Part shown: positions 22,264 through 62,793 of the stretch, one piece after another
How the letters are laid out: every line of letters starts with the position of its first letter
Position numbering within the stretch: position 1 is the stretch's first letter
IMG/VR virus record: IMGVR_UViG_3300037501_000255
Length of the DNA: 64,000 bases
Source of the DNA: a virus
Lineage: Duplodnaviria > Caudoviricetes
Strand: one strand, 5' to 3'
Notes under the pieces: generated by a model
Told to the model about the DNA's origin: nothing
What the model saw: only the letters and a program-made list of their open reading frames with translations
The model's database searches: none
Program-made: the position numbers and the translations under genes

Positions 22264-23897
22264 CCCATCATCATGCCAGGATGGGCGGTAGATGATTTAT
22301 TCTCTTCACTCTCGTCTATGGCTACCACCGCCTCTGTAGTAAGAATTAGCGAACTCACACTGGCTGCATTTTGAAGCGCAACCCTTGTTACCTGAGCCGG
22401 GTCGATAATCCCCGCCTGCAGCATATCTCTGTATTCATGAGTAGCTGCATCGTATCCCCAAGTGCCAGTCAATTCAGATCTGACCTTGTTTAGGACTACC
22501 TCCTGCGACTTGCCCGCATTGGCAACAATCTGCATCAATGGAGCAGAACACGCCTTGAGTATGATCTTAACTCCAATATCCTCTTCTGGGTCGCCTGTAG
22601 TGAAATTTTCGAGTGTTGCTGCTGCACGCACTAGAGCTACGCCTCCGCCCGGCACTATGCCCTCTTGTATCGCCGCCTTTGTAGCGGCAAGCGCATCCTC
22701 AAATCTATCCTTTCTTTCTTTCATTTCGATATCTGTAGCTGCGCCAACCTCGATAACGGCAATGCCGCCAATCAGCTTGGCCAAACGCTTGTTTAGCACA
22801 TCGCGTGCGTGAAAGTCGGTTATGCGAGAGAGTTCTTGGCGGATTTGAGCTGCGCGTTGCTGAATAGCGTCCTCGGCACCGCTCTTTCCCACCACCACGG
22901 TCTTCTCCCTTGTAATAATAATGCGCTCAGCCGTTCCTAGATCGGAGAGCTGCGTTTCGATTAGGCGAGATTCAATACCGAGCTCTTTGATTTGAGCACC
23001 AGTGAGAATCGCCAAATCCTCCATCATTTCCTTTTTTGCGTCTCCGAAACCAGGGGCTTTTACTGCAGCGCAGACAAGAGAGTTGCGCAGAGAATTGACT
23101 ACCATAGTACCGAGAACTTCACCCTCAATAGAGTCTGCTATCACGACCAGCGGTACCTTGTGCTTGCTGCAGTGCTGGAATAGTGGAAGCATCTCCTCCA
23201 TATCGGCTGCGCTGGTAAGCTTGCTATTTACCAGCCAGATTAACGGCTTTTCAAAAACGACCCTTTGGCGCTCCTTATCATTACAGAAGTGTGGTGAAAG
23301 GAATCCGCGGTCAAATTCAAAACCTTCGGCAGCACGAACTGTAGACTCAAAACCCTTGCCTTCCTCCAGAGTGATTACTCCATCCTTACCCACAACTTCC
23401 ATAGCCGAGGCTATCATCTTGCCGATCGAGGTGTCGCCGTTGGCGGAAATGGTTGCTACTTGCTCCACCTCTTTAATATCCTCAACTTGCTTACTTAGTT
23501 TTTTAATCTCAGCCACAACCGCCTCTGCGGCCTTGTCAATGCCGCGCTTGATTGGCATTGGGTCGTGACGAGCCACTATGAGGCGCAGACCTTCAGCCAC
23601 TATAGCGTCAGCCAAAACCGTTGCTGTGGTAGTCCCGTCACCGGCTAAATCCGCAGTACGCGACGCCACCTCTTTCACCATTTGGGCGCCCATATTGGCA
23701 AATGGATCTTTAACTACAATCTCTCTAGCCACCGACACGCCATCCTTGGTGATATGTGGAGGTAATCCACGGCGCTGCAGGACTACGTTTCTGCCACGTG
23801 GGCCCAGCGTACAGGCCACTGCCTTTGCTAAGGTCCTTACTCCGCTAGCTATTTTATCTCTGGAATTTTGACCAAATTCAATTATTTTAGAATCCAT
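22260..23897 (-). CDS. groL: group I chaperonin GroEL
   Basis: TLGPRGRNV, ITKDGVSVA, AGDGTTTATVLA, GIVPGGG and a Gly/Met-rich tail. Confidence 0.98.
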   Translation of the reverse strand: MDSKIIEFGQNSRDKIASGVRTLAKAVACTLGPRGRNVVLQRRGLPPHITKDGVSVAREIVVKDPFANMGAQMVKEVASRTADLAGDGTTTATVLADAIVAEGLRLIVARHDPMPIKRGIDKAAEAVVAEIKKLSKQVEDIKEVEQVATISANGDTSIGKMIASAMEVVGKDGVITLEEGKGFESTVRAAEGFEFDRGFLSPHFCNDKERQRVVFEKPLIWLVNSKLTSAADMEEMLPLFQHCSKHKVPLVVIADSIEGEVLGTMVVNSLRNSLVCAAVKAPGFGDAKKEMMEDLAILTGAQIKELGIESRLIETQLSDLGTAERIIITREKTVVVGKSGAEDAIQQRAAQIRQELSRITDFHARDVLNKRLAKLIGGIAVIEVGAATDIEMKERKDRFEDALAATKAAIQEGIVPGGGVALVRAAATLENFTTGDPEEDIGVKIILKACSAPLMQIVANAGKSQEVVLNKVRSELTGTWGYDAATHEYRDMLQAGIIDPAQVTRVALQNAASVSSLILTTEAVVAIDESEENKSSTAHPGMMMG

Positions 23898-29408: not shown

Positions 29409-30281
29409 CTAATCTAAAGACGATAGGATCTCCTCGAGATCGCGTATTGATCCAATATTGTTAGTCTCTTGCCATTTATAAGCGCTATCTACAATATCCT
29501 CGTATTCTGATTCGGACATCTCCATAAGTCGTTTTGAAAGTGCGGTCGAATCACCATCAAAGTCTCGATAGTCTATAAATAAATTTTTTGGAACATAATC
29601 CTCTATGTTAAAGCACCCGTAGTATACTGCTATTGTCTTAGATTTAAAGCAATTAAAAATTCTTTCGGTAATAAAGTCATAGCTATGAAATGGATGGTAT
29701 GTGCTTTCAAAACACAAGCAGAATTTGTATTCATTTATTTTTTTAAGGTTTTCATAATGAGAATGATAATATGGTATGCTACCAGCGTACATGCTGCCGC
29801 CCCAGGGCGTTCTGGAGAAAACGTGTTTTACTGGTAGGTCAAGTGACTGCATTACGCGCTCGCGCATGAAATATATGTCACCTTCTCTGCCTGTATAATT
29901 TATTTTATTCAAACAAATTATACCGTTTATTTTTTTATTAAATTCAACAAACTCATCTAAGCAAAAATATGAATTACATGCGGGTACACCGCGAATCAGA
30001 TGCACCTGCACCGACGGCAGCTGTGCCCTAACTACATTCGCCATTTTAGAGCTATATGTTATATATGATTGATATTTAGATATAATATTGAGGTCCCAAT
30101 TTTCAGGTATCTCAATGTGAGGCTCTGCAACAAGGAGATGCCTGTATTTGGGCGGAAGCATCATCCTGCTGCCCCACCTAGCATTGAATGCTACATTTTG
30201 ATACTTCTCGCTCAAGTAGTACCACTCATCCCTGGCCAGCCTTACGTCTAAATCCTGTATTTGCAAGTTTTTTTTGATCAT
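29409..30281 (-). CDS. GT10 family (fucosyltransferase-like) glycosyltransferase
   Basis: YKFCLCFES...DFITERI...IAVYYG matches the alpha-1,3-fucosyltransferase motif. Confidence 0.8.
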   Translation of the reverse strand: MIKKNLQIQDLDVRLARDEWYYLSEKYQNVAFNARWGSRMMLPPKYRHLLVAEPHIEIPENWDLNIISKYQSYITYSSKMANVVRAQLPSVQVHLIRGVPACNSYFCLDEFVEFNKKINGIICLNKINYTGREGDIYFMRERVMQSLDLPVKHVFSRTPWGGSMYAGSIPYYHSHYENLKKINEYKFCLCFESTYHPFHSYDFITERIFNCFKSKTIAVYYGCFNIEDYVPKNLFIDYRDFDGDSTALSKRLMEMSESEYEDIVDSAYKWQETNNIGSIRDLEEILSSLD

Positions 30282-31009
30282 ATATCAGTCAATTCACCAT
30301 ACATTGGCCGAGCCCTGATTAGAGAAGCGTTGTCTATCTGCGATCTTTGATTTACCTTCATATCATTAATTGGATTAACATCATTGTATACGTACATTAT
30401 TCTATCTATAAACGCAGCCTTTTTGTTTCCGGCCATCTCTAACATAGGAAACATAAAAGCAGCATCCCACGCAGTTTGAAAGTATGCCCCAGAGTCATCA
30501 CGCAAATCTTTATCAGAAATGCGTGTCCAGAGTTTTCGTCTAAATGTACGAAGGTGGGAGGCTAACCATTCCCCACCACGCCTGTATTTAGATATATCTG
30601 GAATTCTATTTCCATATGGACCGTATTTACCACTAATTGGAATAAAAGTGCCGTACGTCATCCAGCAATCCCGATTATTATACTCTTCATTAAGATAAGA
30701 CAGCACTGCTTCATCGCTAAGCTGGTCGTCTCCATCAACAGTAACAATTATATCATAATCTATATCACTTGTTATATTTATAGCATTTATTATATTATTG
30801 AGCGCGCCCAACCTGACTGTGTTGAATATGGTTTGACAACGCGGATCTGATATGGTTCTAAGGAAATCGGCAGTTGAATCAGAAGAATTGTCATCTATGA
30901 TAATTAATCTAAAATTATCATAGTTCTGATTTAATATCGAATTAACACAGCCGGATATAAACTTCTCGGCATTAAAAACCGGGGTAATTATTGTAAAATA
31001 ATTTTTCAT
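30278..31009 (-). CDS. GT2 glycosyltransferase
   Basis: IITPVFNAE, IIDDNSSD and DGDD. Confidence 0.92.
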   Translation of the reverse strand: MKNYFTIITPVFNAEKFISGCVNSILNQNYDNFRLIIIDDNSSDSTADFLRTISDPRCQTIFNTVRLGALNNIINAINITSDIDYDIIVTVDGDDQLSDEAVLSYLNEEYNNRDCWMTYGTFIPISGKYGPYGNRIPDISKYRRGGEWLASHLRTFRRKLWTRISDKDLRDDSGAYFQTAWDAAFMFPMLEMAGNKKAAFIDRIMYVYNDVNPINDMKVNQRSQIDNASLIRARPMYGELTDI

Positions 31010-31779
31010 ACTAGTGAATTTCTTCTGTTATTTATAGAAGGATGTCTTAGAGATGGATCATTATTAAAAAATTTCATTTGTGCAAAGTTATGCAGCGGCA
31101 TCTGCGGTATCTTGCCAGATAAAATATCATTAAATAATTCTATTTTTAAGTATGTCACTACAGTGCTGCATTTTATCAATCCGGTGGCTATCCAGGATTT
31201 TGTCATTGCGATCTCTATGCCGACCCCTCTACAGTGTAATTTTGAGTATGCATGCATTGATATGAAGTCAGCTCTCTTTAGAATAGCGACTGGAAAGTTT
31301 AAAAAATAATCATCAACAATAGACACATCTTTTATAAAAAAGAGATCGTCGCCAATATTTATATACTTACTGCAATCACGACAGTAGTCTGCCGAATTGT
31401 CGGGAAGGTGTGTGTTAAAGCATATATAACCAATTCCTCTAGAAGAGAGGGTGTTGAGTGTTTTTTTGGATGGTATTTTGTTAATTATTATATCATCTTC
31501 AGAGTAGAAGATCCAGTCGGCATCAGTAGCGTGCAGGCCCCTCAGTTGATTTTCGGCCATCCCGCGTATTCCGCTAGCGGCGCCGGAAACTATGCGCCAG
31601 CCTAAATTAACAAACTTATCAAAATAACCTATATCACACCCATTGTTAAATATATCAACAGAAATTATTTTATCATCAAATAAATCGGTATTACATAGCT
31701 CTATAGAGTTAATCGTCGCATCTAGTAAAGCAAGTCTATCTTTAAGATTTGTAGTCAATACGATGGCTGCTACTTTCAT
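31006..31779 (-). CDS. putative GT-A fold glycosyltransferase
   Basis: WIFYSEDD; located within the GT cluster; start at 31779 (ATGA overlap). Confidence 0.65.
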   Translation of the reverse strand: MKVAAIVLTTNLKDRLALLDATINSIELCNTDLFDDKIISVDIFNNGCDIGYFDKFVNLGWRIVSGAASGIRGMAENQLRGLHATDADWIFYSEDDIIINKIPSKKTLNTLSSRGIGYICFNTHLPDNSADYCRDCSKYINIGDDLFFIKDVSIVDDYFLNFPVAILKRADFISMHAYSKLHCRGVGIEIAMTKSWIATGLIKCSTVVTYLKIELFNDILSGKIPQMPLHNFAQMKFFNNDPSLRHPSINNRRNSLV

Positions 31780-32648
31780 ATATACTCCCACGTCGGAAAT
31801 ATCTCTCTCACCATTTTAATAAGCGTGCCATGATTATTATATGATAAATAATTATTGTGATTTATATTGCATATTAGATGCTTAACGTATTCGCTTCCGC
31901 CGTACCAATGAATGCCTATTGAATATTTACCCAAATACATGGTACCATCTATATCATATAAATATTCTTTGTGATTGTGATCAATAGCGTATACTGTTTC
32001 TTTATGAAATGAGTGTGCGCGGCCGTATTTTTTATTTATCAATCCAAGATTATATTTAGAATTAAGCAGCCCGGCGCCTAGAACTTCATAATCATTATTA
32101 CCTATCTTGCTTAGGGCATCTCTATATATATCTCTATATAGAACATTGTCTTTTGAAGACATTAAAAATCCTACTGCATGTCCCAATATCTCATCAGCGG
32201 CGGAATCTTGTCCGTAATAAAAAAATGTATCTATACAATTGTCATATTCTATTTTATTACACAGCATCTCTTCTATTGGTCTAATATATAAAATATCCAT
32301 ATCTGACCACACACCTCCATAAGTATGCAGAAGATAATATCTTATTATATCAGACTTATGCACTTCGTTTATTGAATTTGATATGCCTATCGATTCACAA
32401 TTGAATATTCTTATATCAACTCCGCAACTATGCAACTGCGGAGTGTAGTCTATTATATCGTTATTATTCTCATATTGTTTGTTGCCCCAGGTTGTCTGAG
32501 AATTCAGACTGTGCGGAGTGTATACAACAATATTCCACTCTGGGTTTAACTTTTTAAATGATAATATCGATAGGAGTCTTAAAAATGACAGCCTGCGTGC
32601 ACCCCAATAGAAATATATTGTTTTAGGTATTTGCGACAGCATCCACAT
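31776..32648 (-). CDS. GT32-like (DxD sugar-binding region) glycosyltransferase
   Basis: IPKTIYFYW, HKSDIIRY and YGGVWSDMD. Confidence 0.88.
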   Translation of the reverse strand: MWMLSQIPKTIYFYWGARRLSFLRLLSILSFKKLNPEWNIVVYTPHSLNSQTTWGNKQYENNNDIIDYTPQLHSCGVDIRIFNCESIGISNSINEVHKSDIIRYYLLHTYGGVWSDMDILYIRPIEEMLCNKIEYDNCIDTFFYYGQDSAADEILGHAVGFLMSSKDNVLYRDIYRDALSKIGNNDYEVLGAGLLNSKYNLGLINKKYGRAHSFHKETVYAIDHNHKEYLYDIDGTMYLGKYSIGIHWYGGSEYVKHLICNINHNNYLSYNNHGTLIKMVREIFPTWEYI

Positions 32649-32649
32649 A

Positions 32650-33483
32650 TTACACGCAACATAAATCTATAATAGTAGATAGCGCTGCATTTTTCGGAAT
32701 GTTCCCGGGGCAACACCTCTCCTCATACGCAAGAGACAATTCGCTTCCACCATACCAGTGACATCCTATAGAACGGCTCATATCTATGGGTTTTGATAAA
32801 AATAAATCTTTAATATTGGTAGGTAGTACCGGGTAAACCGAATATCTACTTATATTGCAAAGCTTTACTTGTGGAAATTTATCAATGATATCCGATAATT
32901 TACGAAAGTATGTGTTTAACACTGTAGAGCCATGCGCCTGATATGCGCCCGCAGGAGCCTGCCTTGCCAATTGAAAGCAATTATTGAAAAACTCATTATT
33001 ACCAGATGAAAATAAAAATCCTATCGCATGCGCGCTTAATTCGGGATATATATGTATGCCAGTATTAGATGTGTGAGCCAATGGGTTTTCAATTACAATA
33101 TTATCAATGCTATTGGTATATACAATGTCCATATCAGACCACACTCCGCCATCCTCGGCGAGGAGCTTCCATCTAAGTAGGTCGGATTTGTGCACCTCAT
33201 GCATTTCATTGTCTATTCCATAATCTTCAAAATCATGTTCTATCACATTTGATACCGCACTGAGCGCTCGATCATAAAAGTTCTCGCGTATGAGTGGGGG
33301 GCGACTCTGTTCACCGGTTTTCCATGAAATATTGTTTCTGCTGGGGAATCTTGGAACATGTAAGTTTATTTCCCAGTTAGAATTAAACTTTTTCAAAGAA
33401 TGTATTGTCAAATATCTAAGGTAAGACATTTGTCTTGATGCAGATCCCCAATATAAATGAATTTTTTTAGGTATAATATTCAA
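32650..33483 (-). CDS. GT32-like glycosyltransferase (tandem paralogue)
   Basis: IPKKIHLYW, HKSDLLRW, GGVWSDMD; shares HWYGGSE with its neighbour. Confidence 0.88.
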   Translation of the reverse strand: MNIIPKKIHLYWGSASRQMSYLRYLTIHSLKKFNSNWEINLHVPRFPSRNNISWKTGEQSRPPLIRENFYDRALSAVSNVIEHDFEDYGIDNEMHEVHKSDLLRWKLLAEDGGVWSDMDIVYTNSIDNIVIENPLAHTSNTGIHIYPELSAHAIGFLFSSGNNEFFNNCFQLARQAPAGAYQAHGSTVLNTYFRKLSDIIDKFPQVKLCNISRYSVYPVLPTNIKDLFLSKPIDMSRSIGCHWYGGSELSLAYEERCCPGNIPKNAALSTIIDLCCV

Positions 33484-34070
33484 GGAGCACCGTCGCTTCT
33501 AGAAGAAAACGATATGTTGAAATCATAATAATATAATATACGTTCAATTCTATGTTGACTTTTACAAGCATTGCTGGCCATTACCGCCCACTCAATATCT
33601 TCGCCATAATTTTTAGATGGAAACTTTATATCTTTAACGACATCTCGTTTAAAAATCATATTGTGGGATGGTTTGCCAGTCCAAAAACCGCGGCCCGTAT
33701 CATTTTCATTATACTCTAACTCGATACCGTATTTACAGTGTATTCTCTTACCAGAATGTACATGTGTGCAAATAATATCATACACTATCACATCCGCGCC
33801 ATTAGCATCGTCTATCGCTAGAAGCGCCTGCTCTATAAAATCTCCAACAACCCAATCATCATCATCCAGAAATACGATATATGATCCGGTAGCGGCGGCC
33901 AAGAGCGCATTTCTTTTATCGCCTATAGATAGAGACTTGTTGTCGTATAGGCATATGAGTTCAACACTATCTCTTCCATCAGCCTGTAACTCAAGGTAGT
34001 CCAACATCCTAGACATGAACGTTCTACGGCGAGCTGGTATAGATGGTATTAAAATTGACAATTTCTTCAT
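33480..34070 (-). CDS. GT2 glycosyltransferase
   Basis: LSILIPS, IGDKRN, FLDDDD and GED. Confidence 0.85.
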   Translation of the reverse strand: MKKLSILIPSIPARRRTFMSRMLDYLELQADGRDSVELICLYDNKSLSIGDKRNALLAAATGSYIVFLDDDDWVVGDFIEQALLAIDDANGADVIVYDIICTHVHSGKRIHCKYGIELEYNENDTGRGFWTGKPSHNMIFKRDVVKDIKFPSKNYGEDIEWAVMASNACKSQHRIERILYYYDFNISFSSRSDGAP

Positions 34071-47260: not shown

Positions 47261-48028
47261 TCAGCTAAAGTCAGGATCTGAATATGCATTTTCTGCAGCA
47301 GGACTAGCGAATATTACCCGACATTTGTCGCACATGTCCGGATCGTCTCGGTAGCATATTCCTATCCATTTGCCAGTAAGGACATTGTACATTTTTTGAT
47401 ACTTCTTAGAGGATCGGACGAGTTGTGGGTGTTCCTTGTGCTCTGCCTGATTTAGCAGGAATTCCTCATTCCTGACGTTATTTCGTGTCTTGACCAGGAC
47501 GTTTAGCGTAACACTCTCGCCACCTTGCGGATTCTGCGTTCGCTGTATAGACGCGATGAGTGGGACGCGATCAAGCGTATCCGAGTCTGTCACGCTCCAG
47601 CGCTCAGGCAAGCACTCTTCGAATGCCGCCATAAGTGCCGCATCTAGCGATGCCTCAGGGCCTGCCCACAGATTAGGAGGGCAGGCCCTGAATACCGCTG
47701 CGTGTGTTTCGTTAAATGCGGCCATTGACAGCACACCGTCCGCCACACTACGTCCCGACACCTGCTCGAAGGACAGGTGCGGATGTAGACCGCGCGGCGT
47801 CGGCAGCAGCCGTACACAGCAAATATTTCTGTGTACGGCTCTATCACTTTCCTCCATTTGATACCAGGCCGTCAGCACCACTGGCACAGCATACTTGGTA
47901 AGAAAGTACTTCCTCGCTAACGCCGCAGATTGCGTTCTGGCAATAAGAAGCATTTCTGCTGGTGAGAAGTCGGAGACGAGAGTGCGCTTTTCGGAAAAAA
48001 TAAGTGGAGTCATTACAGCCCCTGTCAC
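47261..48028 (-). CDS. hypothetical protein coupled to the E1 gene
   Basis: 255-aa ORF whose start overlaps the ThiF stop. Confidence 0.75.
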   Translation of the reverse strand: MTGAVMTPLIFSEKRTLVSDFSPAEMLLIARTQSAALARKYFLTKYAVPVVLTAWYQMEESDRAVHRNICCVRLLPTPRGLHPHLSFEQVSGRSVADGVLSMAAFNETHAAVFRACPPNLWAGPEASLDAALMAAFEECLPERWSVTDSDTLDRVPLIASIQRTQNPQGGESVTLNVLVKTRNNVRNEEFLLNQAEHKEHPQLVRSSKKYQKMYNVLTGKWIGICYRDDPDMCDKCRVIFASPAAENAYSDPDFS

Positions 48029-48891
48029 TTAGGTAGACGCAGTGCGAGCCCCAGCTTGGACCACGATTCCAACGAGGACTTCGTCAGCGGCCTTTGCGAG
48101 AACTTATTTTTGATTGAAAATTCAACCATGTATGTGGATATGGGATTTCCGCTTAGCAGATCATACACGAAGTTGAGTGCAAAAGTGGCCGCATTAAGGT
48201 TGACGAATCCGAATTGATTTGAGGACTCTGCCATCTCAGCACAACTGAGTTCGCTAGCCAGCTTATCTGTCTTAGCTCGCTCGACTAGCTCGGGGAATAC
48301 TTCGAACAGATGCGGGGTGCGATACACCCCGGTGCTGGGCTCCATTGCTGATGTTATGCAGGTGAGGAGCACCTGGCCGGCCACATCTTCATTGCCACAG
48401 TCAATGATATAACCGCCATTTGGGTAATATAGCTGAAGGGCCTCGACCATAAACTTCCGGGCTTTGATATTGTCAACGCACGAAATGATGAGTGGCGTAG
48501 AATTACCATAGTTTATGTTGTTGACCTGCGCATTGCGGAGGGCTGTTTTGATAGAGTTTGCGGATTCTAGATACTGCGGCAGGAATTGTATCTGCGTACC
48601 AAATGCAGTTGAATATCTCCTGGCCAGAGCCTCAGCCTTGTTTTTACCAACATCAGACTTGATAAAGTTCTGGCGTATAAGATTCTTTGGCTCTACCGTA
48701 TCTGCATCTGCAAGTGTCAAACAGACTGGCTGCCTGCTGTTAAGCAGCAAACGAACTAGATTTGGGATGACGTAACTGCCCGTGCCTCCGCAGCCTATAA
48801 CTAGTACATTTTGTATATTTGTCAGCGGCTTGAGCGGATACAGGGGTTCGATCGTGAGTGTTTTTGTCTGTGCCATGCTACATTGCCTCAC
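48025..48891 (-). CDS. E1-like ThiF/MoeB family enzyme (PRTRC ThiF-like)
   Basis: IGCGGTGS, DADTVEPKNLIRQNF, KAEALA, SCVDN, DCGN and candidate catalytic Cys in LSCAE. Confidence 0.93.
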   Translation of the reverse strand: MRQCSMAQTKTLTIEPLYPLKPLTNIQNVLVIGCGGTGSYVIPNLVRLLLNSRQPVCLTLADADTVEPKNLIRQNFIKSDVGKNKAEALARRYSTAFGTQIQFLPQYLESANSIKTALRNAQVNNINYGNSTPLIISCVDNIKARKFMVEALQLYYPNGGYIIDCGNEDVAGQVLLTCITSAMEPSTGVYRTPHLFEVFPELVERAKTDKLASELSCAEMAESSNQFGFVNLNAATFALNFVYDLLSGNPISTYMVEFSIKNKFSQRPLTKSSLESWSKLGLALRLPK

Positions 48892-50048
48892 TCATTCAGG
48901 AATGGGTCTGATGGAAGTTCGTCTGTCTCGGCAGCGTCTGCAACTTCTGGAAGGAGCGCCACTATCGTCTCTTCGTGGCCCGCCTCGAGAAGAGATCCAA
49001 TCAGGTCGGCAACGTCATCATCAGTCATGGCGTCGACCAATTTGTCGAACAGTCTCTGCTTCTGTACTCTTGTCATTTCAACTCCTCCGATAGAAAGGCG
49101 CGCGGTGGTGCTTTTAATCAGATCAATCAGTAGTTCGTCATCATCAGCGTCTACGTCTGACGACGCTGCGCTCCGCTGAAAAAAGGGGTGGTCCGCCGCC
49201 GCACCTCCCATTCTCCTACGAGCATCGCTTATTGCGAATTCAAGCTCGGTTTCAATGTCCAGTTGTGTGGGGCGAGATCTGTGCGTCATCGCCGCACGTT
49301 CATTGCCCAGCGACGTACTTTCAGACGAAGAAGTGGTTCTGACAGGAGCTGTTGGATATTTAGTAATCCTGCTTTTCCAATCGCCAGGAAAGGCGACCTC
49401 CGGCTCCTCCTCAAAGATATCTTCGCGTTTAATAATCACCCGCTTGCCTCCACACACAAAGGAGAAGAGCGTGGCAGGTGAGGACTGATTTAACTTACCG
49501 ATAACACCAAAAAATCTGTCACTCTTCTCATCAGCATTGTCTGTTCCAGAGAAAAAAGCATCCATTGTGTTGTGGGAGTGAGTCTCTAGAACAAGGTGGC
49601 ACCGCGCTTCAAGTTCCGTATCTCTCTCGAAATTGACTGAAGCGCCGCTAACTCGTTGGGCCGGGACATGGTTGAAGTACCGCTTCTCAACGGGGTCCCA
49701 AAATGTTTGGACGTACGCCTCATCCTTGCTCTCGTCGCAGATGGATTTAAAAAAAGCAAGTATTTCTTTGAAGAGGGCTAGCGGTATCTTGCCGAAGTGG
49801 CTCCGGCCATACTCTACATTTTGCTCTTCAGGAAATCCAGGAAGTGGGTTTGCGAATTTCTCCCTCTGGATAACAAAAATGCCTGCCCTGGACTTCCGTA
49901 GTTCCCAGACGCCATCGCGTCTGACAATGTAGTTTACCGGCTTCTCTACATTGGAAATGTCGGGCCAAGCCGCGTCCGTGAGGAATCCGGTATTCTGACG
50001 AGCCAGAAACGTTTTCAGATCTAGTTTAGGCTGAGATGATTCAGTCAT
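48888..50048 (-). CDS. JAB/MPN isopeptidase (PRTRC protein A-like) with acidic C-terminal extension
   Basis: JAMM motif E...THSHNTMDAFFSGTD (HxH-x7-S-x2-D). Confidence 0.92.
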   Translation of the reverse strand: MTESSQPKLDLKTFLARQNTGFLTDAAWPDISNVEKPVNYIVRRDGVWELRKSRAGIFVIQREKFANPLPGFPEEQNVEYGRSHFGKIPLALFKEILAFFKSICDESKDEAYVQTFWDPVEKRYFNHVPAQRVSGASVNFERDTELEARCHLVLETHSHNTMDAFFSGTDNADEKSDRFFGVIGKLNQSSPATLFSFVCGGKRVIIKREDIFEEEPEVAFPGDWKSRITKYPTAPVRTTSSSESTSLGNERAAMTHRSRPTQLDIETELEFAISDARRRMGGAAADHPFFQRSAASSDVDADDDELLIDLIKSTTARLSIGGVEMTRVQKQRLFDKLVDAMTDDDVADLIGSLLEAGHEETIVALLPEVADAAETDELPSDPFLNE

Positions 50049-50051
50049 TCG

Positions 50052-50771
50052 TCACTCTCCGTGCTTGAATATGGTTTTGATTGCTGTATCAAAATTCTTA
50101 TATTCTCGACTGTGAGGAAGCAGCCACTCGGTGTCGAATGGGTGCTCAGTCAGATATTTGAGATAGCTCTGAGCTACTGACTCGTTATCTCTACTCACCT
50201 GCGCCCATGGGAACTTTGAGTTTAGGCACGAGGTCTGGAATAGGTCATCATTGAATGGGGCCGTGAAGAATCTCCGCACCGCGCCATTTAGTGCAGCTAA
50301 CGATTTAAAGTTCTTGATCGCCTCTTCGTTTTGCCCCCAGCAAATTCTAGCATCTGGGAATACATTTGGTGTAGGGTAACTGTACAGCCCATCAATACCA
50401 AGCATAATGTTATTCTGCTTCATTGCAAAGATGTATGAATTGCTCACGAAATAGTGATCATTCGCCTTTGTGAGGATGAAGAGGAATAGAGCCGGAGGCA
50501 GGTTGGCTTTGCCCACGGCGTCAGCGGCGCGACCGCGCGAAGAGAATGATACATCATACGTGCTGGCTGGGCGCTCTACCGCTATGTGCGTCTGATCTCC
50601 TTTGACGCCAAGGTATCGCGTGCCGATGGGCAGGAATCCAATGTCAAATGCGACATTGGTGGACAGCACCTTGACTAGATCGGTCAGGTCTATTCCCTTG
50701 ACCTGCTTGTTGCCAGTAGGATCTGTGTACGTGAGGGTCGTTCCCGATTCAACAATATTTACGTCTAACAT
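50052..50771 (-). CDS. prokaryotic E2-like protein (PRTRC protein B / E2 family D-like)
   Basis: LPPALF...LYSYPTPNVFPDARICWG with the expected Cys, FFTAPFN; lies between Ubl and JAB genes. Confidence 0.85.
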   Translation of the reverse strand: MLDVNIVESGTTLTYTDPTGNKQVKGIDLTDLVKVLSTNVAFDIGFLPIGTRYLGVKGDQTHIAVERPASTYDVSFSSRGRAADAVGKANLPPALFLFILTKANDHYFVSNSYIFAMKQNNIMLGIDGLYSYPTPNVFPDARICWGQNEEAIKNFKSLAALNGAVRRFFTAPFNDDLFQTSCLNSKFPWAQVSRDNESVAQSYLKYLTEHPFDTEWLLPHSREYKNFDTAIKTIFKHGE

Positions 50772-50774
50772 TTT

Positions 50775-51638
50775 TCACCATCCAAAAAGTGTGTCTGTGG
50801 AGATTGTCATTTGCTGACGCTCGTCAGTTGCTATAACGGGACTAACATCGTATGTCAGCTGATTTGGGGCATCCATTATTTCATTAATGGTCATTGTGCG
50901 GCGGCGGCGAATTTCTTCCAACCTTTCTCTAGCTATCCGCTGGGCTCTAGCGCTATCAGTCTCTTCAAGAGAGACGGCTGTAGGCTGATTCTTTACAACA
51001 GTTACCAGAATATTCGCCCTGCCAGCAATTACCTCGCGGCGCTGCTCTTCGGAAAGAGAAGAGTGTGCGAGAATCAGGGCGCGCATGACGAGAAGCTTGG
51101 CTGCCAGGATCTTGTTGAAATCTTCTTGCTCGCGCTCTAAATTGCAGAATGGCGCAGTCTTAAATGCCGGGATTAGAAATTCCAGAGCTGTGTTACCTGA
51201 GCGTCCATCTTCGTGTGTGAATGGTGATACGCCGCCGGCAAGCTCCATAGCAGTCGCGAGATCGGGTGATTGGCGAGAGAAATTGAGTGCTCCTACAATT
51301 GCCGCTGCAATGTTATAGTCTATGCCGTCCGCCACGAGCCTACCACCCAACCCGCGAACCAAGATCTTAGGAGACCAGCTTACCGATAAGCCTGGCGTTT
51401 TTGCAATTTGCTTGTCAACAGCAAAGCGCAAATTCTCTATGAAGTGCTTTGAGTTGAAAGCTATGAAAGATTTCATGACTTCATTCACAGCCTCCGGCTT
51501 TGAGAAGTCCAGCGTTGAAATCTCGCTATATCTAGTTGACGTGGGGCGCCGAGATCTGCGCCCAAGCACGAGACTTTGCTCTACAACAAAGACGTGATTT
51601 AGAAGGGAGGCTGCAAGTTGCTCTCTGAGCTTTGACAT
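50775..51638 (-). CDS. hypothetical protein within the Ubl operon
   Basis: 287-aa ORF between the Ubl genes and E2. Confidence 0.8.
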   Translation of the reverse strand: MSKLREQLAASLLNHVFVVEQSLVLGRRSRRPTSTRYSEISTLDFSKPEAVNEVMKSFIAFNSKHFIENLRFAVDKQIAKTPGLSVSWSPKILVRGLGGRLVADGIDYNIAAAIVGALNFSRQSPDLATAMELAGGVSPFTHEDGRSGNTALEFLIPAFKTAPFCNLEREQEDFNKILAAKLLVMRALILAHSSLSEEQRREVIAGRANILVTVVKNQPTAVSLEETDSARAQRIARERLEEIRRRRTMTINEIMDAPNQLTYDVSPVIATDERQQMTISTDTLFGW

Positions 51639-51644
51639 GTGACC

Positions 51645-51962
51645 TCAGATGAAGTCTGAGTTGAGACTTACAGTCTTCAACCTCAGGAAAACGCCTTTGC
51701 ACTCTCGCGCGCTAAACCTCGCGCTAAGCATATCTTTGGCGGTACAGTTCTGGAATATCGTATCAATATCTTCCTGGGAGAGGGCTCTGCGAGCCTGAAT
51801 TAGCTTCTCCAGCGAAGAGCATGAGAGTATGGCTGTGATGTTATCTGAATGGCGCTTAAATGTCTCGCCGAAGAACTTGTCGATGATTTGCTTTTGAATT
51901 TCAGGAATATTCATCTTCATCCCAAAAATAACGGTGGGGACATCAGCGAGTGACATCCCCAC
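51645..51962 (-). CDS. hypothetical protein within the Ubl operon
   Basis: 105-aa ORF. Confidence 0.7.
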   Translation of the reverse strand: MGMSLADVPTVIFGMKMNIPEIQKQIIDKFFGETFKRHSDNITAILSCSSLEKLIQARRALSQEDIDTIFQNCTAKDMLSARFSARECKGVFLRLKTVSLNSDFI

Positions 51963-51983
51963 CGTTATGGTGCGGCTTATAGC

Positions 51984-52169
51984 TCAACCCTTGGTTCCGG
52001 CCTTCTCGGAGAACTCCCAAGTGGTGGAGCCATCGGCATTTTGCACGCGATTCACCTGCGCGTGCATGATGGCGGGCGCCTGCTCTGAAAGAGCAGCGCG
52101 GATTTCCCCTTCGGTGTGACCCGGAGGGAGGTGGTAAGTGACGCCCTGGAAAATAACGGTGTCCTGCAT
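51984..52169 (-). CDS. ubiquitin-like protein (PRTRC protein C-like), copy A
   Basis: 61 aa ending WEFSEKAGTKG; AGGAG upstream. Confidence 0.88.
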   Translation of the reverse strand: MQDTVIFQGVTYHLPPGHTEGEIRAALSEQAPAIMHAQVNRVQNADGSTTWEFSEKAGTKG

Positions 52170-52302
52170 TGTATACTCCTACAGTGGTGTATATGTGTTT
52201 TACCCGCCTCAGCACCACAACAGAGTCGGATATTTGTGAAAATCAACCCTTGGTTCCGGCCTTCTCGGAGAACTCCCAAGTGGTGGAGCCATCGGCATTT
52301 TG
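51984..52302. repeat. 60-bp perfect direct repeat (51984-52043 and 52243-52302)
   Basis: Identical 3-prime 20 codons of the two Ubl genes, checked base by base. Confidence 0.95.
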
Positions 52303-52434
52303 AAACTTATTTAGAGTTGCATGCAGAATAGCGGGGGCTTGTTCTGAGAGGGCTGCGCGAATCTCGCCTTCCGTGTGACCGGCGGGAAGATTATACGTAA
52401 CCCCTTGAAATAGTACTGTATCCATGTGCTTCAA
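52243..52434 (-). CDS. ubiquitin-like protein (PRTRC protein C-like), copy B
   Basis: 63 aa ending WEFSEKAGTKG; 51 of 59 aligned residues identical to copy A. Confidence 0.88.
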   Translation of the reverse strand: MKHMDTVLFQGVTYNLPAGHTEGEIRAALSEQAPAILHATLNKFQNADGSTTWEFSEKAGTKG

Positions 52435-52652
52435 TCCTTGTCTTTAAGTTGTTTCCTGGAGCGCTTGAGGACAACAATGTCCAGCTCCTCGGGGTCACCA
52501 TCTTCGACGGGAACCTCCACTACCGAGACACGCTTCTTGCTGACGCGCGCCTTCTCGCCCGAGAAAAGGGTGCCGAGCTTTCTTGAAGCTAGAACACCTA
52601 CGGCTGCGCCACCGGCAGCAGCTACACCAAGTAATTTCAATAATCCGGTCAT
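52431..52652 (-). CDS. small protein with N-terminal hydrophobic segment
   Basis: 73 aa; AAGGAG upstream; stop overlaps the Ubl copy B start. Confidence 0.75.
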   Translation of the reverse strand: MTGLLKLLGVAAAGGAAVGVLASRKLGTLFSGEKARVSKKRVSVVEVPVEDGDPEELDIVVLKRSRKQLKDKD

Positions 52653-53318: not shown

Positions 53319-53534
53319 TTACTCTGACTTGTTTTCAATGTTGAGCGCCTGCTCAACCTTCTTCAGTCGAGCATCCAGCGAATTTACTGCATTGACAGTC
53401 TTTCCGACAAATTTAATCAGAAGCTGCACGCCAGCATTTTTAGCCGCAAAGCCCGGCAGGTGGTCCTTAATCATAGCCTTGACTTCTTCCATATCAATCA
53501 ACATATCTACTCCGACTTTAGGGTTCAAGTGCAA
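53319..53534 (-). CDS. hypothetical protein
   Basis: 71-aa ORF. Confidence 0.65.
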   Translation of the reverse strand: MHLNPKVGVDMLIDMEEVKAMIKDHLPGFAAKNAGVQLLIKFVGKTVNAVNSLDARLKKVEQALNIENKSE

Positions 53535-53883
53535 TTTGTGTTTTGCAAGATGGGCACTTGTCTATCTTGCCATTGAGATCGAAGAATTTCTGCGAACACT
53601 TTACGCATGTGTGCTTGTGTCCGTACCTGGTCGGCGGGCCGCAGATCGCAGACTTGGCAGATGTATGATCTGCCGGCGTTGGCAGGCGCACCTTATCGCT
53701 CAGTTCTCCGGCTGTGGCCAGATAGCATAAGATCTGTAGTGCTGCCACTGTGCCGTCCTCGACCTCTAACTGCTCCATCCTGTAAAGGAGGGGGCGGGAG
53801 TAGCGCGAGTCTGAAATCACAGCGACGACTTTTTCGTCGTGGAAAAGGAACCTTCCATCAACCAAAGAAAATTTAGACTGCAT
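53518..53883 (-). CDS. protein with C-terminal FYDLN-type zinc ribbon
   Basis: GHKHTCVKCSQKFFDLNGKIDKCPSC. Confidence 0.7.
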   Translation of the reverse strand: MQSKFSLVDGRFLFHDEKVVAVISDSRYSRPLLYRMEQLEVEDGTVAALQILCYLATAGELSDKVRLPTPADHTSAKSAICGPPTRYGHKHTCVKCSQKFFDLNGKIDKCPSCKTQIALEP

Positions 53884-57089: not shown

Positions 57090-58424
57090 TCAACCGAACA
57101 CCCTCTTGCCGGCAACTACTATGGCTACCAAGACAAATAGTGCTGCAGCCCACATTAGCGAGTATCCTGCACCGCCTGATGATGCCTCCTGTACAGCCGC
57201 ACCTACATTGAGGATGCCGGCTCCGTATTTGAATTCATCTCCAGCATCAGTGGCAGTAGAAGTCATAAGCTTCATAACTTCCGCGCGATCCACACCTGGA
57301 CCAAGAATTGAAACCAGTAGTGCTGCTGAGCCTGCAGCCATAGGCGTCGCCATCGAAGTTCCTTGATAAGGAAACATCCCCCACTCAGATGGATTTTCTG
57401 GATTGACCGTAGACTGCCACACTCCGCCCTCTGGGCCAAAATCTCGCATATTACCGCCGGGTGCTGCAAGGAAAACTCCTCGTTCGTCGTCAGGGTCTCT
57501 ACCGTGTGAAGAATACGGCGCTAGTTTGCCATCGGGCCCAACTGAGGATATGGCTAGGCAGCCCTCCATGCCTGCTGGGTATTCGATAACTCCCCTACCT
57601 GCATTACCTGCGGCGCAAAACACCAGAACATTTTTCTCAACGGCATATGTCAATGCATCCTGCATGACTTGACTAAAGCCACCTCCGCCCAGAGACATGT
57701 TGATTACATGCGCTCCATTATCTGCAGCAAATCTAATGCCTTCGGCAATATCTGCAGTATCGCCCCAACCCTGATCAGACAGCACTTTAACTGGCATGAT
57801 GCATGCGTTGAACGCAATCCCTACGCCGCCAAGGGTGTTGTTTGTGCTCTCTGCGATTGTTGAAGCTACGTGGGTGCCGTGACTCTGGATATCATATGGG
57901 TCTGTGGTGTCTGCCGCGAAGTCATAGCCGGCAACGAAACAGGTGTCCTTTAGATCTGGTATCTGGGGGTATTTGCTATCCGGCCCGGATACGCCAGTGT
58001 CCAAGACAGCGACTACTGCGCCTGTGCCAGTAGTCTTTCGCCATGCAAGGGGCAGTCCAATCATATCGAAATGCCACGCTTGCTTTGCGAGAAATGGATC
58101 ATTAGGCACATCAAAATCGGCGCCGTCGGAAAGGGCGCGATAGACTTGTGAAACTTCAACACTCTGAATGTCGGAATCTCCCCTAATTTCCTCTATAATT
58201 TCTGCCACTTTTGAAGAATCAACCACGGCGGTGGTGATCTTCGTTGATGGGAACATAAGCGAGTTAGGGAGTAGATCTGTGTCAATCTCCTCCTCTGTCT
58301 CTGCGATATCGACTCTGGTGGCGTCATCTTTGAAGTCTACAATGAGCTTGACTGGCGCGGCACTTGCTGCGCTTGCCATGGTTAAAAGAGTAGCGCATAC
58401 CAGTGCGTGGATTATTTTATTCAT
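57090..58424 (-). CDS. exported S8 subtilisin-like serine protease with C-terminal membrane anchor
   Basis: Triad motifs VAVLDTG, HGTHVA and GTSMATP; signal peptide from ATG 58424 (GAGG upstream); C-terminal TM segment plus KR. Confidence 0.95.
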   Translation of the reverse strand: MNKIIHALVCATLLTMASAASAAPVKLIVDFKDDATRVDIAETEEEIDTDLLPNSLMFPSTKITTAVVDSSKVAEIIEEIRGDSDIQSVEVSQVYRALSDGADFDVPNDPFLAKQAWHFDMIGLPLAWRKTTGTGAVVAVLDTGVSGPDSKYPQIPDLKDTCFVAGYDFAADTTDPYDIQSHGTHVASTIAESTNNTLGGVGIAFNACIMPVKVLSDQGWGDTADIAEGIRFAADNGAHVINMSLGGGGFSQVMQDALTYAVEKNVLVFCAAGNAGRGVIEYPAGMEGCLAISSVGPDGKLAPYSSHGRDPDDERGVFLAAPGGNMRDFGPEGGVWQSTVNPENPSEWGMFPYQGTSMATPMAAGSAALLVSILGPGVDRAEVMKLMTSTATDAGDEFKYGAGILNVGAAVQEASSGGAGYSLMWAAALFVLVAIVVAGKRVFG

Positions 58425-58434
58425 TTGCTTCACC

Positions 58435-58617
58435 TCAAACCTCCTGCTCTGGCGCATCAGGCTCAATCTCATCGGTAGTTCTGCGAAGCTTCTTGCGTGC
58501 AGAGGTTTTCGCAACGAAAAGCTCCTTGGCTCGCTTTACAGCTGTTTTACTTATATCACGTGCGATGGTGCTGACGAAGATGTCCACCACCTTTTCTGTT
58601 ATACTTTTCTTTGCCAT
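58435..58617 (-). CDS. hypothetical protein
   Basis: 60-aa ORF with GGAGG upstream. Confidence 0.65.
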   Translation of the reverse strand: MAKKSITEKVVDIFVSTIARDISKTAVKRAKELFVAKTSARKKLRRTTDEIEPDAPEQEV

Positions 58618-61686: not shown

Positions 61687-62793
61687 TTAATTTCTCTTCT
61701 TCGAGACTGCTTGTATAAGCCTGCCAAAAAAAGTAGTATTCTGTTGTAGGGGAACTTTGTTCCTTACTGCCTTAGTGGTGGGTGCATCCTGTGCAACGTA
61801 TGCTCCTCTAAACCGGAATGTATTACCGGATTCGTCAAGAAGAAGGGCGTCGCCTTTACCAAGAAGATTCTCTGCCCCATGTCGATCCAGCACAACTCGT
61901 GAGTGCACCTGGGTCGATACTTTACAAGCGATTTTACTGGGGAAGTTTGCGCGGATCTCACCTGTTAGCACCTTTGATGATGGATGCTGTGTTGCGGCTA
62001 TAATGTGAATTCCCGCTGCACGGCTCTTCTGAGCCAGTTCACAGAGAAGTTTTTCAAAACCCTTGACGCGCATAAGATCTGCTAGCTCATCAATAACGAG
62101 AACTACGTACGGAATCTTCTTGACCTTGGCCCTGTACTCTGAGATGTCACGGCACTTAAACTTTTGAAAAACTCTATATCTATTATTCATCTCCTCCTTC
62201 AGATCCTGCAGCATATCAATGGCTAACTCTGCCTCATTTACTACTGGATAGAGAAGTGCCGGGTGCTTGGAGTATCGATCGAACTCCACTAGTTTCGGAT
62301 CCACTAGTGCAAGTTTAATTCCAACATCAGCATATGTGCGAATAATAGACGTTATCATTGCATGTAGGAGCATGCTTTTGCCGCTACCCGTAGTGCCTGC
62401 GACAATTAGGTGGGGCATCTTAGTTAGATCAATAACTAGCGGAGTTGTGATATCAGTCGTTCCGATGACGAGGGGGAGATTTCCGTTTGTCTGATTTGCA
62501 AATATTGAGTCGAAGTTTATTACAGGGTGATCGGCAAACATCATCTCGACAATGACTAAGCCGCTTGTAAATGCCGGGCGAATGACGGGGGGGGCGATGG
62601 GTTTCATCGCCAAGGCGATATCCTCGGCCATTCCCTCAAGTTTCGAAAGGCGAGTTTGCGGATCGAGTCGGACGAAGTACCGAGATAGGGGGAATTTTTC
62701 GTCGACCGATTCTACAGTAGCTTTAATACCCAATGATCTTAACACGCTTTCGAAGTCAGCTGTGGAAGGTGTGGATTGCGATTGATCTAGCAT
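61687..62793 (-). CDS. FtsK/SpoIIIE motor (alpha and beta domains only)
   Basis: HLIVAGTTGSGKS, LVDPK, VIDELADL, RAAGIHIIAATQHPS and GAENLLGKGD. Confidence 0.92.
   Translation of the reverse strand: MLDQSQSTPSTADFESVLRSLGIKATVESVDEKFPLSRYFVRLDPQTRLSKLEGMAEDIALAMKPIAPPVIRPAFTSGLVIVEMMFADHPVINFDSIFANQTNGNLPLVIGTTDITTPLVIDLTKMPHLIVAGTTGSGKSMLLHAMITSIIRTYADVGIKLALVDPKLVEFDRYSKHPALLYPVVNEAELAIDMLQDLKEEMNNRYRVFQKFKCRDISEYRAKVKKIPYVVLVIDELADLMRVKGFEKLLCELAQKSRAAGIHIIAATQHPSSKVLTGEIRANFPSKIACKVSTQVHSRVVLDRHGAENLLGKGDALLLDESGNTFRFRGAYVAQDAPTTKAVRNKVPLQQNTTFFGRLIQAVSKKRN

Follow-up and report, generated by a model that had tools for sequence, protein, structure and literature searches.

A 64,000-nucleotide stretch of the IMG/VR virus record IMGVR_UViG_3300037501_000255 (referred to below, at its full length, as the window) carries a gene cassette that encodes two ubiquitin-like (Ubl) proteins, an E2-like conjugating enzyme, a JAB/JAMM metallopeptidase and a ThiF-type E1. 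Our reading of this cassette is that it may well serve as a reversible Ubl conjugation and deconjugation pathway, run by the phage during its own infection, and we would put the probability of this at roughly 0.58. We infer the conjugation chemistry by homology, while the genes present, their motifs, the modelled fold, the degree of conservation and the viral setting are documented below. The four core families are those of the ParB-Related, ThiF-Related Cassette (PRTRC), for which the NCBIfam models include TIGR03735-03738. PRTRC in phages is already known; what is new here is a divergent, ParB-less version of it that is kept as a core block across a jumbo-phage clade.

The cassette occupies a compact stretch of the minus strand

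Every gene of the window is on the minus strand, and the packing is dense. Read along that strand from 52652 to 47261, the cassette and its immediate partners follow each other in this order, and downstream of the last of them come a dUTPase and then a helicase:

52431..52652, minus strand: small protein of 73 amino acids with a hydrophobic N-terminal stretch; an open reading frame (ORF) and possible accessory member
52243..52425, minus strand: Ubl1, 60 amino acids, start ATG 52425; ends in GTKG and stop; relatives begin MDTV
51984..52169, minus strand: Ubl2, 61 amino acids; ends in GTKG and stop; PRTRC_C match
51645..51914, minus strand: orf89, lineage-specific accessory protein; same position in four related loci
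50775..51638, minus strand: orf287, lineage-specific accessory protein; lies between the Ubl genes and E2
50052..50771, minus strand: E2-like conjugating enzyme, 239 amino acids, candidate catalytic Cys144; PF14460, PRTRC_B
48888..50048, minus strand: JAB/JAMM metallopeptidase, 386 amino acids; PF14464, PRTRC_A
48025..48891, minus strand: ThiF-type E1, 288 amino acids (283 if it starts at Met6, 48876), candidate Cys217; PF00899, PRTRC_ThiF
47261..48028, minus strand: orf250, 255 amino acids from GTG (orf255) or 250 from Met6 at 48013; coupled to E1

Intergenic gaps within the cassette range from -4 to +21 bases, the 73 bases between Ubl1 and Ubl2 being the exception. JAB and E1 overlap by 4 bases, as do E1 and orf250, which suggests translational coupling of these genes. 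As for the starts, the longest ORF of Ubl1 begins at TTG 52434, where it is overlapped by 4 bases by the stop of the 73-amino-acid ORF; ATG 52425 is the most likely start, giving a protein of 60 amino acids. The longest ORF of orf89 has 105 amino acids, from GTG 51962, while its relatives have 89, and both E1 and orf255 probably start at the sixth codon.

The original prediction had described seven ORFs, running from the first Ubl gene to E1, and had quoted motifs for the Ubl, E2, JAB and E1 proteins. All seven lie at the coordinates given there, on the minus strand, and a script found every one of the motifs. The extent of the block was, however, underestimated: it continues to the downstream, translationally coupled orf250 (47261-48013) and probably also takes in the 73-amino-acid membrane protein upstream.

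The E2-like, JAB and E1 proteins retain their predicted active sites

In hidden Markov model searches of Pfam and NCBIfam, the E2, JAB and E1 proteins all scored above the Pfam cut-offs, and the best NCBIfam match of each core protein was the corresponding PRTRC model, though below its cut-off. The E2 matched Prok-E2_D (PF14460) at 1.9e-8 and 34.7 bits (cut-off 25) and PRTRC_B at 2e-4 and 20.7 bits (cut-off 131.45). Its residues 135-146 read PNVFPDARICWG and contain the motif T-P-N-x7-C-W-G, of which Asn136, Cys144 and Gly146 are invariant across the window clade, the Bacillus phage WH1, a distant locus from IMG/VR (L006) and the canonical PRTRC protein B of the Ralstonia phage Dina. The spacing from Asn to Cys is the same as in the HPN...C motif of UBC enzymes. 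No invariant histidine was found downstream of Cys144 within the clade, in an alignment that includes one canonical sequence only.

The JAB protein consists of an N-terminal PRTRC_A-type domain, a catalytic domain and a C-terminal linker followed by a helical domain. It matched Prok-JAB (PF14464) at 2.1e-6 and 28 bits (cut-off 25) and PRTRC_A at 2.2e-14 and 53.5 bits (cut-off 101.8), with its N-terminal part aligned from model position 29. Residues 157-170 read HSHNTMDAFFSGTD and, together with the upstream Glu110, make up the complete JAMM/MPN+ metal-binding and catalytic motif E...H-x-H-x7-S-x2-D. Glu110 and His157-Ser-His159 are invariant, and the Ser-x2-Asp element is kept in nearly all relatives. 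Across eight sequences Trp117 is invariant as well, and no arginine is.

The E1 matched ThiF (PF00899) at 1.3e-17 and, at 2.9e-36 and 125 bits, PRTRC_ThiF (TIGR03736, cut-off 144.75), with 217 of the 245 model positions covered. The features of an E1-like adenylating enzyme (the ATP loop, the arginine, the aspartate and the cysteine) are all present: GCGGTG at 33-38, DADTVEPKNLIRQ at 62-74, which holds NLIRQ, and SCAE at 216-219. In eight diverged sequences the G-x-G-G-x-G loop, Asp64, Asn70, Arg73, Gln74, Asp140 and Cys217 are invariant, and Cys217 would lie on the crossover loop of the enzyme. Among solved structures, those nearest to the E1 profile by sequence are the active adenylation domain of Uba1 (1e-11) and ThiF (4e-10).

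The Ubl proteins resemble beta-grasp modifiers and are present in more than one copy

Ubl1 and Ubl2 are 85% identical and, as a script confirmed, both end in GTKG directly before the stop codon; the ending A-G-x-K-G followed by a stop is found without exception in the whole family. Ubl2 matched the NCBIfam model PRTRC_C at 3.7e-4 and 20.6 bits (cut-off 45.95). The link to known prokaryotic Ubl proteins is strengthened by gp211 of the Bacillus phage WH1, which matches Prok_Ub (PF14454) at 3.4e-27 and shares the AGTKG end; Ubl2 can be aligned to each of its Prok_Ub repeats.

That these small proteins adopt a beta-grasp fold, an assumption on which the original prediction depended, is supported by structure modelling. 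An AlphaFold2 model of Ubl2, built from 14 family members, reached a mean pLDDT of 86 and shows two strands, a helix, a short helix and two further strands, the last seven residues being disordered. The top rows of a Foldseek search with this model include MoaD (probability 0.98) and ubiquitin (TM 0.63, root-mean-square deviation (rmsd) 2.8 Å), and a VIA search returned nearly only beta-grasp proteins, namely GB1, MoaD (Z 5.2 and 4.9), Raf RBD, Fubi, SUMO, ISG15 and TtuB. The modelled fold is thus consistent with a beta-grasp, and the scores of the structure searches are modest, as expected for 55 residues.

The history of the two copies can be read from their codons. Among the first 41 codons, 25 differ synonymously and 8 non-synonymously, while the last 60 bases are identical and the flanks past the stop codon are unrelated (51984-52425). 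This pattern points to an old duplication kept under purifying selection, on which a recent gene-conversion tract would have been superimposed. Two Ubl copies occur in other genomes of the clade as well, and copy number appears to have been raised in two different ways, by tandem genes in the window and by a repeat polyprotein in Bacillus phages. Such extra copies suggest that a plentiful supply of the tag has been selected for, and they would fit a modifier that is consumed rather than a carrier that is recycled.

The cassette is conserved as a block in a jumbo-phage clade

The window lies in a 142-kb IMG/VR record, rated 38% complete, whose DNA comes from a freshwater metagenome. The original prediction had taken the contig for that of a probable jumbo phage, and both parts of this view hold. 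A large terminase subunit (phrog_675, 2.7e-54) is encoded outside the window, and a 367,953-base contig encodes an identical E2 protein. Also outside the window there is a gene whose product has a head-protease-like stretch, and the window itself encodes a phage DNA polymerase, GroEL, SbcCD-like nucleases and a helicase. The cassette is carried by a jumbo phage of ~370 kb that is probably lytic. We also considered an ordinary PRTRC locus on a plasmid, an integrative and conjugative element (ICE) or a chromosome; this is ruled out by the terminase, the phage DNA polymerase, the dense one-strand gene arrangement and the IMG/VR record itself.

Two of the viral genes deserve a separate remark. The terminase has 970 amino acids (G000:C1:41770-44682, equivalent to L014:1770-4682) and matches a LAGLIDADG homing-endonuclease family in its middle, which may be an intein or a homing-endonuclease insertion. 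The GroEL-type chaperonin (22260-23897, minus strand; phrog_5725, 6.5e-153) is at most 51% identical to any copy in the phage collection searched.

Twelve relatives of the E2 were found at 58-82% identity, several of them on contigs of 229-259 kb. Synteny was followed in four loci on uncultured contigs (L004, L005, L007 and L008), two of these contigs being 229 and 249 kb long. In all four, an ORF of about 90 codons, one of about 287, E2, JAB, E1 and one of about 250 stand in the same order as in the window, and the helicase comes next, separated from orf~250 by a dUTPase in three of these loci; the Ubl genes are upstream in every locus whose contig extends there. The recurrence of one order in four diverged contigs puts this grouping far beyond chance. 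Identity to the window falls from 77 to 46% for E1, from 82 to 34% for E2 and from 69 to 45% for JAB, which is roughly how the adjoining helicase is conserved (81 to 42%), and orf89, orf287 and orf250 diverge faster, down to 25-34%. On the strength of this strict synteny, with identity falling in step with that of the helicase, the cassette is best described as a vertically inherited core block of the phage clade and not as a recent addition.

When the cassette was compared by blastn with 50,697 phage records, nothing was returned, nor did a scan of IMG/VR with a back-translated pattern from the single E2 return anything; the same scan with an E2 alignment gave one distant locus, L006.

The company that the cassette keeps might be taken to mean that the tag regulates proteins of DNA replication, segregation or replicon maintenance, a role that has been loosely suggested for PRTRC on plasmids, ICEs and temperate phages. 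In its neighbourhood there are a dUTPase, a helicase, an AAA ATPase and a Dam methylase, and canonical PRTRC systems travel with ParB on plasmids and temperate phages and have been called a partitioning cassette (PMC13366799). Yet in a densely packed, one-strand phage genome such a neighbourhood is weak evidence, and none of the papers that we found backs the 'partitioning' label by experiment. No ParB was found here either: just as the original prediction had noted no parB in the window (and correctly listed an AAA+ ATPase among the products of this phage), a scan for the ParB_N domain, which matched in control genomes, was negative for the whole 142-kb record, which is 38% complete, and nothing of the kind adjoins the cassette. 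We therefore regard a role in replicon control as quite unlikely, and return to a phage-run conjugation pathway as our working model.

Cultured phages carry homologous cassettes

A tblastn search of cultured phages with E1, JAB and E2 showed that all three enzymes are encoded, in the order of the window, by the Bacillus jumbo phages vB_BceM_WH1, Edson and vB_BauM_KLEB27-3. These are the closest cultured relatives of the core, with identities of 36-38% for E1 (over most of its length), ~30% for JAB and ~25% for E2, and, like the window, they have Ubl units ending in AGTKG. In WH1, however, the Ubl protein gp211 (L001:829-1728) is a polyprotein of five head-to-tail Prok_Ub units, each ending in AGTKG, plus a 15-residue tail, so that cleavage would be required. 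The WH1 accessory proteins (127 and 509 amino acids) show no similarity to orf89 or orf287, and the hosts of the Bacillus phages are Gram-positive. KLEB27-3 has a shorter related gene and an annotated PRTRC_A domain.

Homologous cores were also found in the Salmonella phage Arash, in the Vibrio phages D69, D181 and D148 and in the Acinetobacter jumbo phage ME3, where PRTRC protein A and ThiF are annotated, while the small temperate phages Dina, YO105_4 and BgVeeders33 carry the canonical cassette. In Arash, homologues of the E2-like protein, JAB and ThiF (gp248c-gp246c, L010:1519-4539) stand at the end of the linear record, gp248c being E2-like (hhalign probability 97%, E 3e-11) and gp246c the ThiF homologue. 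No recognisable Ubl was seen among the small ORFs adjoining the Arash E2.

Some of these proteins are labelled as structural. For gp246c and gp248c of Arash the label comes from liquid chromatography-tandem mass spectrometry (LC-MS/MS) of phage preparations (PMC10585845); the WH1 record labels gp211 a 'virion structural protein', and we did not find the basis of this label in the literature. We considered association of the cassette proteins with the virion and rejected it, as these labels are unreliable evidence, the Arash set of 116 proteins including many enzymes. What the Arash data support is production of the E1 and E2 homologues, and not their presence in the virion.

Three accessory proteins accompany the core

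Searches with orf89, orf287 and orf250 gave no match in Pfam, NCBIfam, PHROGs or PADLOC, the 73-amino-acid protein matched no Pfam or NCBIfam family, and six of the seven cassette proteins belong to no PHROGs family. A homologue of the 73-amino-acid protein stands directly upstream of the Ubl genes in L004, and orf89 keeps its position in the four syntenic loci at identities of 27-70%. With a profile of the orf287 family no more than 25 cluster representatives were retrieved from 1.84 billion proteins, and the two most distant relatives that were traced lie in the same gene neighbourhood. As orf89, orf287 and orf250 co-occur so strictly with the cassette, our guess is that they are the best candidates for an adaptor, an E3-like factor or a substrate.

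In canonical cassettes the position of orf287 is taken by PRTRC protein F. The AlphaFold2 model of orf287 is of high confidence (pLDDT 94.3, pTM 0.81) and of mixed alpha/beta character, with an N-terminal helical bundle and repeated helix-plus-hairpin units. Fold searches (PDB with Foldseek, AFDB clusters, VIA wide, BFVD and ESM Atlas), made with the whole model rather than with separate domains, gave low TM scores or generic helical-bundle matches only, and we do not claim a new fold; the ESM Atlas models for orf287 and orf255 were of low confidence and uninformative. One BFVD entry, A0A7R7G1K1 (509 amino acids, rank 18), was the sole row of that database to align with orf287 over 274 columns at rmsd <10 Å (TM 0.29). 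It is as long as WH1 gp213, which has the same cassette position as orf287. Direct comparisons of orf287 with protein F of Dina, with gp211 and gp213 of WH1 and with gp250c of Arash, and of orf89 with gp212 of WH1, revealed no similarity.

The C-terminus of orf250 carries a cysteine cluster (47261-47400) with Cys225, Cys233 and Cys236 here and up to ~10 cysteines in L008. Cys233 and Cys236 are invariant and are followed by a conserved A-Y-D-D-P tail, and the cluster could form a small metal site.

A conjugation pathway run by the phage is the favoured interpretation

Put together, the predicted activities would form the following cycle. The ThiF-type E1 (283 amino acids) would bind ATP and adenylate the exposed C-terminal glycine of the 60-61-amino-acid Ubl, which would then pass onto Cys217 of the E1 as a thioester. 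From there the Ubl would be handed to Cys144 of the E2 and joined to lysines of target proteins, and the JAB metallopeptidase would take it off again. In the Bacillus phages, the JAB might in addition cut the five-unit Ubl polyprotein into monomers. At least in one relative such components are expressed, with the E1 and E2 homologues of Arash detected by LC-MS/MS (PMC10585845). The roles that the original prediction suggested for the tag, namely marking host defence proteins, modifying virion proteins or opposing the Ubl systems of the host, are guesses.

Several points weigh against this model. Neither an E3 nor a target can be named. All of the NCBIfam PRTRC scores (ThiF, A, B and C) stay below the trusted cut-offs, and sequence searches of solved structures with the E2 and the JAB returned no relative. 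The Arash proteome comprises 116 proteins, many of them enzymes such as ribonucleotide reductases and ligases (PMC10585845). A literature search brought up no biochemistry on any PRTRC or 6d-type system, and no RNA-seq runs containing the stretch were found. Finally, the Ubl ends in a single glycine, like ThiS and MoaD, and MoaD is among its best fold matches, with weak significance (Foldseek E 0.04; VIA Z 5.2).

The single glycine and the MoaD match would also favour a sulphur-carrier pathway, in which a ThiS/MoaD-like Ubl would be converted by the E1 into a thiocarboxylate for the synthesis of a cofactor or a thio-nucleoside, with no protein being tagged; the membership of the E1 in the ThiF/MoeB family could be read in the same way. 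Against such a pathway, the conserved partners of the Ubl and E1 include a JAB peptidase and an E2 whose cysteine is invariant. Multi-copy and polyprotein Ubl genes would be odd for a recycled carrier, no rhodanese, cysteine desulphurase or sulphurtransferase was seen among the cassette and flanking genes scanned, and the E1 does not have the Cys-x-x-Cys pairs of ThiF and MoeB. We consider this the least probable of the alternatives discussed here, and protein tagging by the phage the better account of the same genes.

If the phage indeed tags host or viral proteins, this would amount to a novel level at which phages control infection, and to a first function for PRTRC. A broader claim, which we put forward tentatively and would sooner doubt than assert, is that a jumbo-phage clade has built a complete Ubl system, comprising the tag, an E1, an E2, a deconjugase and adaptors of its own, into its core infection programme, and uses it to tag particular host or phage proteins in every infection. 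If true, it would be the prokaryotic-virus counterpart of eukaryotic ubiquitin signalling, and the clade would possibly be the source or reservoir of plasmid PRTRC systems. The cultured Bacillus, Salmonella, Vibrio and Acinetobacter phages with homologous cores make these ideas testable at the bench, and the five-unit Ubl polyprotein of WH1 is a ready substrate for a JAB protease assay.

Other features of the window

Further upstream on the minus strand there are genes for a subtilase S8 peptidase (57090-58514, 4.6e-53) and an FtsK/SpoIIIE-like ATPase (61687-62793, 7.2e-40), as well as for a small protein with a FYDLN_acid zinc-ribbon-type C-terminus (53518-53883). The S8 peptidase and the FYDLN protein are likewise upstream of the cassette in L004. 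Positions 30001-34000 of the window have a G+C content of 0.37, against 0.43-0.50 in the rest.

Comparison with known systems

Among the closest known systems is PRTRC, a resemblance that the original prediction had noted. The window shares with it four core families, namely Ubl (C), the E2-like protein (B), JAB (A) and the ThiF-type E1, and a one-strand order C...B-A-ThiF, the window having Ubl-Ubl-x-x-E2-JAB-E1 and Dina (gp02-gp07) E-C-F-B-A-ThiF. The Asn and Cys of the E2 are conserved in both, the N-terminal domain of JAB is common to both, and protein C of Dina has G-R-K-G where the window Ubl has GTKG. There are also differences. Canonical PRTRC resides on a plasmid, an ICE or a temperate phage, whereas here it is on a jumbo phage; ParB is absent from the record, the Ubl gene is present twice, the JAB continues far beyond its catalytic domain at the C-terminus, and E and F are replaced by three clade-specific proteins unrelated to them. 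With 28 family members, at E values up to 1, no NCBIfam match to PRTRC E or F was obtained for orf89 or orf287, and hhalign gave the orf287 family a probability of 0.1% against protein F of Dina. Formally, then, the cassette is not a member of PRTRC, judging by scores, ParB and proteins E and F, yet the core families and their order are common to both. The finding of a PRTRC-like set in a virus stands, but its novelty had been overstated, since PRTRC-type genes are already annotated in Dina, ME3 and KLEB27-3, and a PRTRC locus in a Burkholderia gladioli prophage has been discussed, its function not being studied (PMC13366799).

The core also matches operon type 6d, described by Iyer, Burroughs and Aravind in 2006 (PMC1779556). 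Both combine a small beta-grasp protein, encoded on its own and ending in a glycine, with an E2-like protein that keeps a cysteine but lacks the classical histidine and with an E1 that has no rhodanese domain. As in 6d, the JAB appears to have an additional N-terminal alpha+beta domain, with a conserved tryptophan (Trp117 in the window). The 6d E2 has a conserved downstream histidine, and the 6d JAB N-domain conserved Arg and Trp (PMC1779556). The E2 of the phage clade has Asn or Asp where Dina has histidines, in an alignment that, with one canonical sequence, locates the 6d histidine only tentatively, and the 'largely alpha-helical' partner described for 6d is not recognisable in orf287, which is mixed alpha/beta. 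The 6d/PRTRC type, predicted in 2006, appears to be the oldest predicted bacterial cassette of its kind and never to have been tested, and two overviews of jumbo phages (PMC7824862, PMC13282480) describe no phage Ubl conjugation system or ThiF enzyme.

Recent work has shown that bacteria use Ubl tagging as an antiviral weapon, in CBASS and Bil, and bacterial systems with E1, E2 and JAB act in phage defence (PMC10097602, PMC11601596). The cassette might accordingly be a counter-defence module directed against host Ubl immunity (CBASS Cap2/Cap3, Bil, Bub) or other defences; the phage could use its JAB to remove conjugates made by the host, or attach its Ubl to defence proteins so as to inactivate them. 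Jumbo phages do carry many anti-defence genes (PMC7824862), and in PADLOC the CBASS E1-E2 models match the nucleotide-binding stretch of the E1, at residues 27 to ~110, with only ~70 residues matched. This is, however, the only PADLOC match of any cassette protein, as E2, JAB and Ubl match no defence model. Anti-defence genes are usually patchy, whereas the cassette stably keeps its place and gene order as a core block of the replication region throughout the clade, and deconjugation alone would need no E1, E2 or two Ubl genes. We therefore regard counter-defence as unlikely, while taking it more seriously than any other alternative.

Alternatively, the phage might use its Ubl as a weapon against rival phages or superinfection, placing it on the structural proteins of competitors in the way in which Bil tags a tail protein and so blocks phage assembly (PMC11601596). 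Exclusion systems are, as a matter of general knowledge, common in phages. The likeness to Bil, judged from its published description, is limited to common superfamilies, though, and conservation as a core gene set better suits a role in every infection, which makes this idea highly unlikely; a pathway serving the phage's own infection remains our preferred explanation.

The defence systems also differ from the cassette in their construction. Cap2 is an E1-E2 fusion that acts on a cyclase, and BilD is a multi-domain E1; Bub forms Ser and Tyr oxyesters, with a catalytic-serine E2, a tyrosine E1 and a DUF6527 protease (PMC11601596). No CD-NTase cyclase or effector families turned up among the cassette and flanking proteins scanned, and DUF6527 has no match in any cassette protein. 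Unlike Cap2, the E1 and E2 of the window are separate genes, both with cysteines. The E1, with 283-288 amino acids and one adenylation domain, is set apart from BilD by the published description of the latter, and the invariant cysteine of the E2 and Cys217 of the E1 distinguish the cassette from Bub, compared by description as well (PMC11601596). The same general chemistry is nevertheless to be expected in all of them, with E1 adenylation, E2 transfer and JAB reversal (PMC11601596, PMC10097602), but while CBASS, Bil and Bub are systems of host defence, the cassette described here is encoded by the phage.

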